Source of the DNA: Deltaproteobacteria bacterium
GTDB taxonomy: Bacteria; Myxococcota_A; Polyangia; DRWM01; JAAZOP01
Assembly (NCBI GenBank): GCA_016218815.1
Contig: JACRCX010000117.1
Location: 35,009 to 99,008 of the forward strand
Direction: 5' to 3'
DNA length: 64,000 bases
The position numbers were made by a program, and so were the translations under genes. The notes under the pieces are model-generated. The model did no database searches. It was not told the origin of the DNA and saw only the letters and a program-made list of their open reading frames with translations. Shown piece by piece: positions 21,033-63,312 of the stretch. Position 1 is the stretch's first letter, and every line of letters begins with the position of its first letter.

Positions 21033-21130
21033 GGATTTCGCGCAAAGACCGCAAAGAGGCAAAGGACGCCAAGGGGATTTCGCGCAAAGGACGCAAAGGG
21101 ACGCAAGGACCGCAAAGAGAGGACCAAGCG
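21033..21130. repeat. Purine-rich intergenic repeat region (GGGATTTCGCGCAAAG x2; CGCAAAG/GCAAAGG about 7 times), unusually AT-rich for this genome
   Basis: gagggatttcgcgcaaagaccgcaaagaggcaaaggacgccaaggggatttcgcgcaaaggacgcaaagggacgcaaggaccgcaaagagagg, between the Ycf48-like gene and the hydrolase gene. Confidence 0.6.
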
Positions 21131-28059: not shown

Positions 28060-28085
28060 GACCAACAACTCCTGAACCAACGACC
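28060..28085 (+). promoter_or_regulatory. Direct-repeat motif GACCAACAAC-N5-AACCAACGACC, 12 bp upstream of a TTGACA hexamer (YbjN-like gene upstream region)
   Basis: The motif recurs at 29831..29855 and 57680..57694. TTGACA lies at 28098-28103. Confidence 0.45.
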
Positions 28086-28167
28086 CCTCGCCGCCGTTTG
28101 ACATCCCTCCGTGCGTCCTGCCACCATCCCCGGGCGCCGGTCGGGGGGGCCGCACTGGGAGGTGCCG

Positions 28168-28554: not shown

Positions 28555-28613
28555 GACGGGCGGCCGAGCGGCCGAGCGGCCGAGCGGTCGCGGGGCCGGG
28601 CGCCCGGGCCGGC

Positions 28614-29774
28614 CTACGCGCGGTCGATCCCGAAGATCCGCCCTTCCAGCCGATCGGCCAGCGTGGCGACCTGGAAGACCAGCGCCGCGAGGTCCTGGTC
28701 GCGCACGCGCGCGATCGGGAGAAAACCCTGCACCACGATGCGCGGCATGTCCGTCCCGCTCTTGACCAGCACGACCCGCGCGTAGCCCGGCCCGCCGAAC
28801 CCCCCCAAGAGCGCCTGCGGCTCGACCACCGCCGTGATCTCGCCGACGTCCGACTCCGCCCCGAGCATCGGCTCTCCTTCGCAGTACGGCTCCGAGGACT
28901 CGACGACGAACACCTTCACGCTCTGCCAGCGCTGCTCCGACAGCGGCACGTCCACGTTCACCCAGTGCGGCTCCTGCTTCGTCTTCGCCCCGAGCATCTC
29001 GACCACGGTCCGCAGCCGGTCGGGGACGTTGCCGAGTCGCCCTGCCTCCGCCGCGTCCGCCACCGGAGCGTAGGCTGTGCCCGCCTCGCCCGGGATCGGC
29101 GTGTCCGTCAGGATGTAGCGTCGGATCAGATCGTCCAGGTCCGTCTCCGTGTCCGCGCGGCTCTGCAGGAACTCGACCGCGCGGTCGATCGTCACCGGAC
29201 GGCCCCAGCCGACGACCAGCGGCTTGCCGCCCAGCGCGTCGCGCCACTTGCGCGAGCGCGAGCCGACGTAGCACGACGCGAAGACCATCAGCCGCAGCCC
29301 CGGCGACACCTTCGCCGGGTCCAGGTCCTCGGGTACGACGTGGCCGCCGTCGCAGGTCTCGACCGATCCGTCCTCGCCGCCGTGCGCGCTCCAGTAGACG
29401 CCCGCCGGGACGAGCCCCTGGACCCCCTCGCCGTTGCCGGCCACCGCGTCCAGGAAGTCCTGTCGCGTGGCCTGCGGATCGACGACCACCTTGTAGCCGG
29501 CGTTGCGCAGCACCTCGATGTCGTCGTTGATCTGTTCCGTCTCGCGCTGCAGGAACCCCTGGTCGCGGTCGCTGTGGATCTTGAACCCGAACAGGAAGAG
29601 GAACGACTTGCCGGTGCCGATGCCCTGCGCCGCAGGCTCGTGCACGACCCGCTTCGTCGGATCGTCCGTCCTCGCGCCTTCCTTCCACACCTTCGGTCCG
29701 GGGCGGCCCTGCTTCCCCTTCGCTGCCCAGGCCGCCGGCATCTTCACCTCGGGCTTGTCCTGATCGTCCGCCAT
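28614..29774 (-). CDS. Caspase/CHAT-like (C14-fold) cysteine protease domain fused to a C-terminal YbjN-like domain
   Basis: ATG at 29774 with GGGAGGAA RBS. No signal peptide. Caspase-fold hallmarks: a hydrophobic strand SFLFLFGFK, His in VYWSAHGGEDG, and Cys in LMVFASCYVG (His-Cys dyad spacing about 45 aa). The C-terminal 150 aa resemble the adjacent standalone YbjN-like protein. Confidence 0.55.
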   Translation of the reverse strand: MADDQDKPEVKMPAAWAAKGKQGRPGPKVWKEGARTDDPTKRVVHEPAAQGIGTGKSFLFLFGFKIHSDRDQGFLQRETEQINDDIEVLRNAGYKVVVDPQATRQDFLDAVAGNGEGVQGLVPAGVYWSAHGGEDGSVETCDGGHVVPEDLDPAKVSPGLRLMVFASCYVGSRSRKWRDALGGKPLVVGWGRPVTIDRAVEFLQSRADTETDLDDLIRRYILTDTPIPGEAGTAYAPVADAAEAGRLGNVPDRLRTVVEMLGAKTKQEPHWVNVDVPLSEQRWQSVKVFVVESSEPYCEGEPMLGAESDVGEITAVVEPQALLGGFGGPGYARVVLVKSGTDMPRIVVQGFLPIARVRDQDLAALVFQVATLADRLEGRIFGIDRA

Positions 29775-29830
29775 CGCCGCTTCCTCCCTTCGCCGCCGTT
29801 GCACGGCCGGTCGGGATGGTAACGGGGCCC

Positions 29831-29855
29831 GGACCAACAACCAAGAACCAACGAC
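29831..29855 (+). promoter_or_regulatory. Direct-repeat motif GACCAACAAC-N4-AACCAACGACC in the divergent intergenic region between the caspase-like gene and nadA
   Basis: Near-identical to the site at 28060. It is followed by TTCGAC/TTGCAC -35-like hexamers. Confidence 0.45.
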
Positions 29856-29920
29856 CGACAACTTCGTCCCGTTCGACCGGGTCTTGCACCGCCCGACGCT
29901 CATGCCTATCTTCCGCCCCG

Positions 29921-30853
<933 letters not shown>

Positions 30854-30872: not shown

Positions 30873-30945
30873 TCGGAACCGAACCGCGCCCTTCAGGGCG
30901 CGGCTGAGTCGGTCGGGCCAGCCGCGGGCTGAAGCCCGCGGTTCT
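30873..30945 (+). repeat. REP/MITE-like double-hairpin intergenic element, copy 1 (between nadA and larE)
   Basis: GGAACCGAACCGCGCCCTTCAGGGCGCGGCTG-N12-GCCGCGGGCTGAAGCCCGCGGTTC, with two GC-rich hairpins (CGCGCCCT/AGGGCGCG and CCGCGGGC/GCCCGCGG). It shares 60+ identical nt with the copies at 41514 and 47281. Confidence 0.8.
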
Positions 30946-31032
30946 GGTACGGCAGCCCGGCAAACTGGCGGGTCGTCGACGACGAAACCAGGGGCACCGG
31001 AAGGGCCGACCGCCGAGTCGAAGTACGCCCGC

Positions 31033-34673: not shown

Positions 34674-34702
34674 TTGACCGCTCCCGGTCTGTGGCCTACC
34701 CT
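34674..34702 (+). promoter_or_regulatory. Sigma70-like promoter (-35 TTGACC, 17-bp spacer, -10 TACCCT) upstream of the cysteine-rich lipoprotein gene
   Basis: TTGACC at 34674-34679 and TACCCT at 34697-34702. The identical hexamers and the GTGGCCTACCCTGAA block recur upstream of the paralog at 37186..37214. Confidence 0.5.
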
Positions 34703-34748
34703 GAATTCGGCGCTTGCCGGGGGCCGTTGCGGTCTGGAGGAACGGATC

Positions 34749-37185: not shown

Positions 37186-37214
37186 CTTGACCGTTCGAAT
37201 CGCGTGGCCTACCC
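37186..37214 (+). promoter_or_regulatory. Sigma70-like promoter, duplicated copy (-35 TTGACC, 17-bp spacer, -10 TACCCT)
   Basis: TTGACC at 37186-37191 and TACCCT at 37209-37214. The flanking block GTGGCCTACCCTGAAC is identical to the one at 34691. Confidence 0.5.
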
Positions 37215-37254
37215 TGAACCTCGCGCTCGCGGAGAACGCAGGGAGGTCGCGAAC

Positions 37255-41513: not shown

Positions 41514-41586
41514 GCGGAACCGAACCGCGCCCTTCAGGGCGCGGCTGTGTCGGGACAAGCCGCGGGCTGAAGCCCGCGGTTCGGTT
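41514..41586 (+). repeat. REP/MITE-like double-hairpin element, copy 2 (between the M20 peptidase stop and the M3-like peptidase start)
   Basis: Same consensus as copy 1. The outer arms GGAACCGAACCGCG...CGCGGTTCGGTTGC form terminal inverted repeats. Confidence 0.8.
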
Positions 41587-47280: not shown

Positions 47281-47350
47281 TCCGAACCGCGGGCTTCAGC
47301 CCGCGGCTGAATCGCGTCGCAGCCGCGCCCTGAAGGGCGCGGTTCCGTTG
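47281..47350 (-). repeat. REP/MITE-like double-hairpin element, copy 3 (inverted orientation; divergent intergenic region between the Cys-rich lipoprotein and the STPK)
   Basis: The reverse complement matches GGAACCGCGCCCTTCAGGGCGCGGCTG...GCCGCGGGCTGAAGCCCGCGGTTCGG. Confidence 0.8.
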
Positions 47351-52736: not shown

Positions 52737-52915
52737 GATTGCAGGGAATATACGTTCGGCGTCGCCGGAGCTTCAACTTTGCGGCCTGGCCACGGGCCGC
52801 GGGGCCTCGGGGGCCAAGCCCCGGGACCTCCCCACCTCCCCAGCCGACCTCTCCACCTCTCCTCAACCGGTCCGGAAAAGGCTGACGCGTCGCTACGAGC
52901 CCCGGGATTGCTCGC

Positions 52916-53292: not shown

Positions 53293-54801
53293 TCACGCGC
53301 GCAACGCGGAGCGCACCGACGCGAAGGCGTCCTTGCCGCAGGCCAGCAACGCCGTCGCGGGGGCCGCGCGGCGGGCGAGGGCGGTGATCGAGGCCGTGAC
53401 GTCGCGGATGTCCCACTGCGCGTGCTTGTCCATCCGCAGCCGGGCCATGTGGTGGATCTCGCGCAGGTTGATCACCGCCAGGGCCCTCCGGCGGTGCGCG
53501 TTGGTCAGCACGTACTCCGCCGCGCGCGGCTGGGTCGACGCCAGCCGCGCGAACGTCCCGGCCGACCGCTCGGCCAGCTCTCGCAGCTCGCCCGCCAGCC
53601 CGGCCTCGCGCACGGCCTCGGGTATGGTGATGCCCAGCGCCGGGTCGTAGGGCTGCGCGACCAGCGTCATCATGCGGTGCCGCTTGAGCTGCCCGAAGCA
53701 CGCGGCCGACAGCGCGATCTCGAAGGTGAACGCCGCCGCCTCGAACTCCCGCGGCAGCGCGTCGAACTCGGACAGCTCGGCCAGCGCGTCGCACACGAAA
53801 CCCCGGCGCTCGCCGGACGACATCGCCTTTGCGCGCGCCGAGCAGTTCGCGTACGGCAGCCCGGAGCCCGAGTGCAGCAGCGCGGCGATCACGGCCGCGT
53901 CGGGGTCCGCGGCGCCTCCGAGCAGCGTGACGTCGCCCTCGGTCCATCCGACGGACGCGGCTTCGGGCGCTGCGGAAGCCATCGTCTCCCGCGCCAGGCG
54001 CTCGATCGTGGCTCGGCCGCGGGCGACGAAGCCGTCCGAGACGTCCCGGCCGAATGCCTCGCGGAACCGCTCCGGGTCGGACAGGATGATCAGCGACGGC
54101 GCGACCTCCGAGGCCGCGTCGAACAGTCCCCGCGACAGCGCCCGCACCTCGGCCAGCGGATGATGCCGCAGCTTGCGCACGACGTGCTCCAGGTTGCGCG
54201 CGTTGCCGGAGAATCCGAGCTGCGTCTCGGTGGCCAGGCCCAGCGCGTAGCGCGCGTCCTCCTTGGCCCAGCCCTCGACGGTCTCCACGCCGGTCTTCGT
54301 CCCCAGCATGTCCGAATTACGCTTGCGCTGCAGCTCGAGCAGCTTCTCGAAGGCGCGGCGATAGAACGCGATCTGCTCCGCCGCCGCGGCCTCGAACAGC
54401 TCCCGCTCCGCCGGTCCGAACTCCTCCGGCACGACGTGCTCGCCGCCGAAGGTGACGTAGCGCTGGGACTTCTCCGTGTAGGAGCAGAGGCGGGCGTCCT
54501 CCAGCGCCTCGAGCGCCAGGCGGGAGACGCCGAGGATGTCGAAATTGAGCTGGACGTGCTCGGCGACCGAGTGGTGGCCCATGCGGAAGACGATGGTGCG
54601 GTTGGACTTGCGGGACGCGGGCACGTCGCGCCGCGCCTGCGCCCGCAGCTCCGGAATCGGCTCGGGGAAGCGGCTGATCCGCGCGTAGGCCGCCGAGATC
54701 GTCTCCGGCGTCGGCTCGACGTCCGCCGGCAGCTCGCCGCGCCGCATCGACTGCACGAACTCGCGGTCCAGGGTGTGTCCGGCCAGGATGACCCGCAGCA
54801 T
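53293..54801 (-). CDS. thyX: FAD-dependent thymidylate synthase ThyX, tandem-domain long form
   Basis: ATG 54801 with GGGGAGG RBS. Two ThyX-like halves; the C-terminal half carries the RHR motif (GQLKRHRMMTLVAQ). 502 aa. Confidence 0.7.
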   Translation of the reverse strand: MLRVILAGHTLDREFVQSMRRGELPADVEPTPETISAAYARISRFPEPIPELRAQARRDVPASRKSNRTIVFRMGHHSVAEHVQLNFDILGVSRLALEALEDARLCSYTEKSQRYVTFGGEHVVPEEFGPAERELFEAAAAEQIAFYRRAFEKLLELQRKRNSDMLGTKTGVETVEGWAKEDARYALGLATETQLGFSGNARNLEHVVRKLRHHPLAEVRALSRGLFDAASEVAPSLIILSDPERFREAFGRDVSDGFVARGRATIERLARETMASAAPEAASVGWTEGDVTLLGGAADPDAAVIAALLHSGSGLPYANCSARAKAMSSGERRGFVCDALAELSEFDALPREFEAAAFTFEIALSAACFGQLKRHRMMTLVAQPYDPALGITIPEAVREAGLAGELRELAERSAGTFARLASTQPRAAEYVLTNAHRRRALAVINLREIHHMARLRMDKHAQWDIRDVTASITALARRAAPATALLACGKDAFASVRSALRA

Positions 54802-57620: not shown

Positions 57621-57679
57621 ACTGCCGCCTCCCCACCTCTCCAGCCGACCTCCCCACCTCTCCACTTCCGGCTTCGGCC

Positions 57680-57694
57680 CAAGAACCAACAACC
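57680..57694 (+). promoter_or_regulatory. Half-site CAAGAACCAACAACC, 10 bp upstream of TTGACA (NfeD/flotillin operon upstream region)
   Basis: 14 of 15 nt match the 3' half of the site at 29841..29855. TTGACA lies at 57704-57709. Confidence 0.4.
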
Positions 57695-57739
57695 GCTCCC
57701 CTATTGACACCGACCCCCGTTCCGCCCCAGGAAGGGCAC

Positions 57740-60668: not shown

Positions 60669-60706
60669 CCCGCCCTTCCCGCCCTTCCCGCCCTTCCCGC
60701 CCTTGC
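60669..60706. repeat. Microsatellite GCCCTTCCC x4 just after the flotillin stop
   Basis: ccgcccttcccgcccttcccgcccttcccgcccttgcttccc. Confidence 0.7.
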
Positions 60707-62607: not shown

Positions 62608-63312
62608 ACGCAACCACCAACCCAGCATGTCGAGTCCCTCCTTCCCCGTCCGGACGCCGGAGTCGACCACGTTTCCGGGCTCCGCGGCAACCCTGCGTGT
62701 GCATCCCCCCGGACAAGGTCCCGGTCGGGGTCGTCGGCGATCCGACCGGCGTGGACGAAGGGGCCCACGCGGGCGGCGATACCTCCGCGACCTGGAACGG
62801 CTCGAGCTGGGGCCTGACCTGGGGCGCTTGGTGGGACGTCGTCCGCTTCCGCAACCTCGACGCCGACGGCGTGCCGCTCACCCCGGCCACCGCGCTGCCC
62901 TTCATGGGCGGCCCGGGAGGGCTCGAGTGGAACGGCTCCGTCTACGGCTTCGCCGCCGACGACTGGACGGACGAGGTGATCGTCGGCGTGCTCGACACCG
63001 TGGGCGCGATGCGCGCGGGACCCACCTGGGTGTCGGGCACCGCGCAGGCCCCCGACGTCTCGTGGTCCGAGGCCCTCGGGAGTTGGGTGGCCGCATGGAC
63101 CGTCTGCACCGGCGGGAGCGGCACGGCCGAGATCCTTGCGGCGCGTGTCGATGATGAACGCGGCGCCGGACCAGCAGATCGAGAAGGAACTGACCGCCCA
63201 CATCCCGGACGTGGTGGTCCCCCAGAGGTCCTGATCGGCGGCCGAGGCGCGGTTGACCTGACGGGAGTCGTGCCTAGAGATGGGGCGGCGCAGGTGAAAG
63301 GGGGCGCCCCGC

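Follow-up and report, generated by a model that had tools for sequence, protein, structure and literature searches.

The window, that is, the whole 64-kb stretch of DNA that was analysed, contains several intergenic occurrences of a short ACCAAC-bearing motif. It is found upstream of a ybjN-like gene (site 1), between nadA and a divergently transcribed gene (site 2) and upstream of the NfeD/YqiJ and flotillin genes (site 3). A fourth, related site upstream of thyX was overlooked in the initial annotation and was found via the list of ACCAAC hexamers. The sites are as follows:

Site 1: 28060-28085, + strand, GACCAACAACtcctgAACCAACGACC
Site 2, motif: 29832-29856, + strand, GACCAACAACCAAGAACCAACGACC
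Site 2, 7-nt tandem array: 29832-29862, + strand, GACCAAC AACCAAG AACCAAC GACCGAC AAC
Site 3: 57680-57694 (the feature extends to 57700), + strand, CAAGAACCAACAACC
Fourth, related site: 54959-54869, - strand, 5.4 copies of the 17-nt unit tcctccgatcgaccMac (Tandem Repeats Finder, period 17)

Site 1 lies just 3' of the stop codon (28037) of a PLD-family gene, at approximately -75 to -50 relative to the inferred start of the ybjN-like transcript. Site 2 is situated in a 146-nt divergent region between the gene of a 386-amino-acid protein (minus strand, ATG at 29774) and nadA (ATG at 29921), spanning roughly positions -89 to -65 relative to the nadA start. Site 3 is 45 nt upstream of the NfeD/YqiJ ATG (57740), and the array of the fourth site directly adjoins the TTGACA at 54869-54864, upstream of thyX (ATG at 54801). 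The genes downstream of these sites have no obvious functional link. Their labels in the initial annotation could be checked in part: in Pfam, a 238-amino-acid protein matches YqiJ_N, a 128-amino-acid protein has only a sub-threshold match to CesT_Tir_1 and the 386-amino-acid protein, labelled 'caspase-like', has no match.

The motif sequences were present where the initial annotation had placed them at sites 1, 2 and 3, but its description of them as AACCAACNACC in two copies was loose, the first half of site 1 being GACCAACAACT. The layout of site 1 is GACCAACAAC-tcctg-AACCAACGACC. Sites 1 and 2 match exactly over 10+11 nt, with every difference inside the 4-5-nt linker, and the half-sites are spaced 15 nt apart at site 1 versus 14 nt at site 2; site 3 carries a single half-site. 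Exact 12-mers are common to sites 1 and 2 and to sites 2 and 3, and the similarity between sites is limited to 12-26 nt. Site 2 is a tandem array with a period of 7 and 4.3 copies (29833-29862; Tandem Repeats Finder). Site 1 matches the heptad register of site 2, plus one extra base, and site 3 amounts to roughly two units; sites 1 and 3 can be described as degenerate forms with one to two units. In the thyX array, two units hold CGACCAAC, with ACCAAC at 54946-54941 and 54929-54924 on the minus strand.

The initial annotation held that such recurrence was unlikely by chance, and the counts bear this out. Allowing at most one mismatch, AACCAACRACC has six matches in the 64-kb window against 0.80 expected, a number reached in 0 of 100 dinucleotide-preserving shuffles, and the expected count of the full 26-mer is 0.00. 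The hexamer ACCAAC occurs 21 times in the window against 12 expected. On a GC3-based gene map, intergenic DNA makes up 8.6% of the window and contains 7 of these 21 hexamers, where 1.45 would be predicted from composition (binomial p=0.0014), and the ACCAAC-bearing intergenic regions number four within the window. The sole in-gene match to the 11-mer, at 62612, is preserved as coding sequence in the closest relative (L123). Exact TTGACA is present in 4 of 31 intergenic regions, among them three of the four that bear ACCAAC (hypergeometric p ~0.0035). Tandem repeats in general cover 5.1% of intergenic versus 0.9% of coding DNA. The motif is thus real, non-random, intergenic and located upstream of promoters.

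A consensus promoter scan called no promoter near any of the sites, and the promoter assignments used here therefore rest on conservation between genomes. The assigned promoters are as follows:

ybjN-like core promoter: 28098-28127, + strand, TTGACA (28098-28103), 18-nt spacer, CACCAT (28122-28127)
nadA promoter: 29884-29923, + strand, TTGCAC (29884-29889), 17-nt spacer, TATCTT (29907-29912), 8 nt, ATG (29921)
Putative promoter of the divergent 386-amino-acid protein gene: 29816-29844, - strand, -35 TTGGTT (29844-29839), 17-nt spacer, -10 TACCAT (29821-29816)
thyX promoter: 54869-54841, - strand, TTGACA (54869-54864), 17-nt spacer, TACGAA (54846-54841)

The core promoter of the ybjN-like gene is followed by the Shine-Dalgarno sequence GGGAGG and then by ATG 28168, and its form TTGACW-N17/18-c(A/G)(C/G)CAT is kept in at least eight related lineages. 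The nadA promoter, TTGCAC-N17-TATCTT followed after 7-8 nt by ATG, is common to the window and to L121, L141, L143-145 and L122. As the -10 element TATCTT ends 8 nt before the ATG, and no Shine-Dalgarno sequence was found before that ATG, the nadA mRNA is probably leaderless. The NfeD/YqiJ promoter TTGACA-N17-CCAGGA-N7-ATG (TTGACA at 57704-57709) and the thyX promoter TTGACM-N17-TACGAA are both kept in the sister genome, as the closest relative is called below. L121, L142 and L143 share with the window both the -10 of the divergent promoter (TAGCAT/TACCAT) and a TTG that precedes it by 17-18 nt. The -35 of this promoter in the window, TTGGTT, is the reverse complement of the AACCAA inside the site 2 array, and relatives have TTGAAG, TTGCCC or TTGCCG exactly at its place. 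The supply of a -35 element by the site 2 array would be the only concrete effect on function to be read from the sequence.

The distance from the motif to the conserved -35 element is 12 nt at site 1, 27 nt at site 2 and 9 nt at site 3. A gap of 10-15 bp to a TTGACA-like hexamer, as the initial annotation proposed for all three, was found at site 1 (TTGACA 28098-28103) and nearly so at site 3, where it is 9 nt (57704-57709). At site 2, there is a TTCGAC (29872-29877) 15 nt from the motif, but this hexamer is not at that place in the relatives, in which the -35 conserved over five lineages is the TTGCAC at 29884-29889, 27 nt off. Measured from the centre of the proximal half-site to the centre of the -35 element, the distances are 20.5 nt (site 1), 35.5 nt (site 2) and 17.5 nt (site 3), and the sites are therefore not on one face of the helix. 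Overall, sites 1-3 have neither a fixed spacing nor a helical phase nor a fixed arrangement of half-sites relative to the core promoter.

The closest relative, GCA_016218765.1, has a NadA 91% and a flotillin 94% identical to those of the window and is syntenic at both stretches compared (L121 and L123). The sequence compared amounted to 64 kb for the source genome and ~43 kb for its sister. Relatives of nadA (L122, L141 and L142-L145) and of the ybjN-like gene (L128-L140, from metagenomes) were also included, and about ten more distant relatives were compared besides the sister genome. Nearby NadA homologues are labelled Myxococcales or Myxococcota. Flotillin relatives L124-L127 (67-68% identity) were dropped because they occur in phage-like contexts and are not orthologous. 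The contigs on which they lie carry flotillin and YqiJ_N gene pairs 67% identical to the pair of the window, together with a UvrD helicase with a Hint domain, AAA_24, a DNA methylase and many small ORFs.

The motif was described as conserved in the initial annotation, which is true within the window only, since the orthologous sites 1-3 of the examined relatives are without ACCAAC. At the orthologous promoter of site 1, the motif was not found in more than ten relatives (L121, L122, L128-L134 and L142-L145). The motif of site 2 was likewise not found in five lineages (L121, L122, L141 and L143-145), nor that of site 3 in the one relative available (L123). All of these relatives, though they lack the motif, have kept the -35 and -10 boxes.

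Upstream of the same genes, the sister genome has arrays of other sequence. Its ybjN-like gene is preceded by cgacttcgg in two copies and cttgtcYccgt in two copies, and its nadA (L121) by three copies of CACTCCCCCG adjoining the -35 element. No array was found at the site 2 position in L141, L143-145 or L122, and the more distant relatives have no arrays at the places of sites 1-3. At site 3, the intergenic region aligns near-perfectly with that of L123 except for a 16-nt indel, ACCAACAACCGCTCCC (57685-57700), which is in the window only. The thyX array is the only array with an ACCAAC unit that is common to the sister genome. Its distal unit is AAACGACCAACTCCTCCGATCGACCAAC in the window versus CAACCAACAACTCCTCCGATCGACCCCC in the sister genome; the homologous array in L123 starts with ccAACCAACAACtcctccgatcgac, and its promoter-proximal units differ, being two copies of tcctccgctcttcccgcac. 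Elsewhere in the sister genome, the tcctccgctcttcccgcac unit is found in two more intergenic regions (L121 384-411 and 18825-18905), and a 13-mer, ACCAACAACTCCT, is common to site 1 and the thyX array of the sister genome. Because upstream segments have been replaced while the promoters were kept at ybjN, nadA, NfeD and thyX, the same conserved promoters are flanked by a different dispersed repeat family in each of the two lineages.

Several other repeats occur in the window, one of them next to site 3:

Neighbouring repeat of another family: 57626-57664, + strand, CCTCCCCACCTCTCCA(gccga) x2, in the intergenic region that also contains site 3

The sequence CCTCCCCACCTCTCCAGCCGA is common to this intergenic region and to the one at 52825-52862. 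In both places (52825-52862 and 57626-57664), a 40-nt element, CCTCCCCACCTCTCCAGCCGACCTC(C/T)CCACCTCTCC, lies on the + strand and the genes run opposite ways; the copy at 57.6 kb is kept in L123 and the copy at 52.8 kb is absent from it. Another intergenic family, comprising GCGGCCGA and CCGCTCGG (complements of each other), is found at 28560-28606 and ~44307. A REP/BIME-like element, built from two 27-nt hairpin modules in inverted orientation to each other, occurs three times (30879-30946, 41520-41584 and 47282-47347), with one copy directly 3' of the nadA stop codon; its six modules have 0-1 mismatch, against 0.00 expected. This hairpin family is unrelated to the ACCAAC motif. An origin of the motif itself from a MITE or REP element was considered and rejected, as the motif has no inverted repeats, the segments shared between sites are just 12-26 nt and the motif is predicted to be unpaired. 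No Rfam family was found at the gathering threshold within the window.

There are also repeats of a different character. Two near-identical promoter-like stretches, TTGACCg(c/t)tc...gtggcctaccctgaa, at 34674-34720 and 37187-37235 precede two adjacent large cysteine-rich repeat genes and look like paralogous promoters; the L121 counterpart of one of these genes matches Cu-binding_MopE. A purine-rich repeat of CGCAAAGGA (3.8 copies, 21083-21117), ~30 nt upstream of a start codon, is kept in the sister genome (L121 3523-3557), unlike the other arrays, and could give several Shine-Dalgarno-like AAGGA sites. Four perfect copies of CCCGCCCTT (60669-60704) are located in the 47-nt gap after the flotillin gene, before a gene that is a Ser/Thr kinase by synteny with L123. 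The sister genome has a gap of 14 nt at this place and does not carry the CCCGCCCTT repeat.

A scan of a genome collection with ACCAACRAC-N3-6-AACCAACRACC returned at least 120 loci (L001-L120). Among the matches listed, Cyanobacteria contribute most often, ahead of Bacteroidota and other phyla. Long intergenic (AACCAAC)n arrays are found, again among the matches listed, in Cyanobacteria, Bacteroidota, Acidobacteriota, Planctomycetota, Gemmatimonadota, Chloroflexota and others; examples include L002 6701-6806 (minus strand), L112 7284-7431 and L068 3097-3132. Some of them are arranged as inverted pairs (L044 and L112), which could form long hairpins. In ~32 of 130 arrays among the matches listed, a same-strand ORF start lies at most 45 nt downstream, and the divergent orientation was seen in 6. 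As intergenic arrays of this kind occur in many phyla, AACCAAC is a repeat unit that recurs among bacteria rather than a signal specific to Myxococcota. Among the papers listed by a literature search, none was found to describe an AACCAAC repeat unit.

There are several reports concerning repeats of comparable size in bacteria. Heptamers are reported to be over-represented among bacterial simple-sequence repeats and, when closely related genomes are compared, to show 'extensive length and sequence variation' (PMC4692102). Heptamer repeats, including the STRRs of Cyanobacteria, are described as intergenic and as varying between close relatives (PMC4692102; PMC4679880; STRR, PMC2670836). GGGNATC repeats have been reported from Xanthomonas and Nostoc (Rehm et al. 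2015, PMC4692102), and TAACTGA repeats from Beggiatoaceae, Cyanobacteria and Bacteroidetes (MacGregor 2015, PMC4679880). The (AACCAAC)n arrays before ORF starts resemble the TAACTGA repeats of MacGregor. The repeats of the window share with heptamer repeats and STRRs the head-to-tail arrangement of ~7-nt units in 2-5 copies per site, the recurrence of the unit across intergenic regions together with its exclusion from coding DNA, and differences in copy number and sequence between close relatives in which the flanking genes are kept. Some features differ. Just three or four short, degenerate sites were seen here in 64 kb, and they lie upstream of -35 boxes, whereas TAACTGA repeats lie within ~50 nt of the start codon and GGGNATC repeats between aligned ORFs. 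In addition, the ACCAAC unit is not G-rich and thus has no G-quadruplex potential on the motif strand, and the host is a 71% GC Myxococcota-like MAG, unlike the hosts of the published repeats.

A further parallel is offered by contingency-locus repeats such as the heptanucleotides of Haemophilus influenzae, which are also short tandem repeats next to promoters or leaders. Their copy number shifts by slipped-strand mispairing, which can alter expression (PMC2651432; PMC12721329). The tracts at contingency loci are long and perfect, and in populations of host-adapted pathogens they are demonstrably hypervariable, whereas those of the window are short and imperfect.

Taken together, these observations suggest, with a probability of roughly 55%, that the ACCAAC motif is a fast-evolving family of dispersed short tandem repeats and not a conserved regulator-binding site. 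It is best filed with the known dispersed intergenic short tandem repeats, here in a promoter-adjacent form. The repeats are best read as lineage-specific, with a ~7-nt unit RACCAAS that is sometimes fused with TCCTCC modules, and the family as one of several intergenic short-repeat families in this genome and in the sister genome. The initial annotation had itself named two findings that would speak against a regulatory motif, namely random occurrence in coding regions and membership of a larger dispersed repeat unrelated to promoters. The motif is not scattered through coding DNA, but it does appear to be a dispersed short tandem repeat, yet one that is adjacent to promoters. What stands of the original interpretation is that the motif is non-random, intergenic and upstream of promoters; its reading as a conserved class I activator operator or UP element does not. 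A role as a dedicated operator is not likely, and any effect on expression is probably generic or incidental.

A mechanism for the origin of such a family can be proposed. Repeat units would arise and expand by replication slippage, as the tandem structure (period 7 in 4.3 copies and period 17 in 5.4 copies) suggests. Patches of 12-26 nt may then be copied from one intergenic region to another, through ectopic conversion or template switching, and the older array upstream of thyX may be the source. Such short-patch copying is suggested by the exact 12-mers (sites 1-2 and 2-3), the 13-mer ACCAACAACTCCT and the clean indel at site 3. The copies would persist if the DNA just upstream of -35 boxes is little constrained, and the repeats would otherwise act as G-poor spacer DNA upstream of promoters. 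Both slippage with copying and the lack of a specific binding protein are what we infer from these patterns.

A recently evolved, lineage-specific regulon is an unlikely alternative for which several features of the sites nevertheless speak. According to this explanation, the direct repeats ACCAAC-N8/9-ACCAAC would be putative transcription factor sites, at which a factor such as a response regulator recognizing direct repeats would activate the adjacent sigma-70-type promoters or, at site 2, repress and co-ordinate them; in another variant, the motif would make a UP-like contact with the alpha subunit of RNA polymerase. The strong over-representation of the motif is consistent with such a regulon, as is its association with the rare exact TTGACA promoters (in 3 of 4 regions). 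All sites are intergenic, in the orientation of the downstream gene and at most ~30 nt upstream of a -35-like box, and in most arrays the sense strand of the downstream gene is the one poor in G, which hints at an orientation-dependent role. Moreover, the half-sites are identical at sites 1 and 2 while the linker varies, as selection on two half-sites would give.

Operators of the OmpR/PhoB type have direct repeats spaced 10-11 nt apart, and UP elements have a consensus of A/T tracts. The motif is like them in being a direct repeat or a relatively A-rich tract upstream of the -35 element in the orientation of the gene. It is unlike them in its spacing of 14-15 nt or 7 nt, in a distance to the -35 element that is not fixed and in lacking both orthologous conservation and an A/T tract. 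The class I activator operator of the initial annotation fares poorly because the motif is absent from the orthologous promoters of relatives in which the -35 and -10 boxes are kept, and because the geometry varies. The suggested UP element finds no counterpart in a sequence of A and C without T runs, which has no similarity to the A/T-tract consensus. The same absence from orthologous promoters despite kept core promoters counts against a regulon of any kind, as do the unequal distances of the half-site centres from the -35 element (20.5, 35.5 and 17.5 nt) and the single half-site of site 3. Likewise, a spacing of 14 or 15 nt between half-sites does not match the helical repeat, site 2 is a plain 7-nt tandem array and the downstream genes have no evident common function.

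A role at the level of RNA is distinctly improbable. Here, the motif would be a C/A-rich, G-poor and unstructured tract that is read through from the upstream gene and acts as a putative rut site or leader, either by loading Rho and so insulating the downstream promoter or as a CA-rich leader that aids translation. The latter variant would be akin to the heptamer arrays just before start codons in other phyla, and the ~32 of 130 (AACCAAC)n arrays (among the matches listed) at most 45 nt before a same-strand ORF start, versus 6 in divergent orientation, fit it. Upstream of site 1, of site 3 and of the thyX array lies in each case a co-directional gene with no predicted intrinsic terminator, and the intergenic regions have a sense-strand excess of C over G of +0.20, +0.53 and +0.22. 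The motif is predicted to be unpaired, and the intergenic RNAs of sites 1 and 3 fold worse than their shuffles (z +1.76 and +0.93). However, site 2 lies between back-to-back promoters, upstream of both, and is therefore not expected in either mRNA, so that an RNA-level role does not apply to it. The motif copies of sites 1 and 3 and of thyX precede the conserved -35 element and are not part of the main leader, and other repeat families are antisense (52825-52862 in the window; L121 18825-18905). A rut site needs no specific sequence, which leaves the exact recurrence of an 11-mer unexplained. The C-minus-G skew is mixed across intergenic regions, several tandem ones being G-rich on the sense strand, and the rut idea is for that reason kept only as a rival.

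A bolder proposal, to be regarded as a long shot, is that promoter-upstream DNA in this clade is actively colonized by functional, lineage-specific short-repeat families, with RACCAAS/TCCTCC units here and CCGCACTYC/CACTCCCCC units in the sister genome. The repeats would then serve as arrays recognized by a global regulator that binds repeats and whose specificity evolves together with its sites or, alternatively, would be the products of a dedicated short-patch copying mechanism that rewires promoters. If so, the ybjN-like gene, nadA with the divergent 386-amino-acid protein gene, NfeD-flotillin and thyX would constitute a newly born regulon. Finally, chance recurrence of a low-complexity word in a small intergenic sample, which the mere three or four sites and the generally low-complexity intergenic DNA might invite, is effectively refuted by the shuffle controls, in which the observed count never appeared (0/100), by the 26-mer expectation of 0.00 and by the exact 12-mers common to sites.

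If the ACCAAC motif is indeed a dispersed short tandem repeat, it offers a caution for motif discovery in GC-rich genomes, in that exact, AT-richer words that recur before promoters can turn out to be dispersed slippage-type repeats instead of operators. A single comparison with a sister genome separates operators from dispersed repeats. If, instead, the sites belong to a young regulon, they would offer a view of a regulon being born. The site 2 repeat that appears to supply a -35 element would be a small but concrete example of promoter remodelling. Overall, the dispersed-repeat reading would mean that short-repeat families turn over quickly beside conserved core promoters in this uncultured Myxococcota-like lineage.
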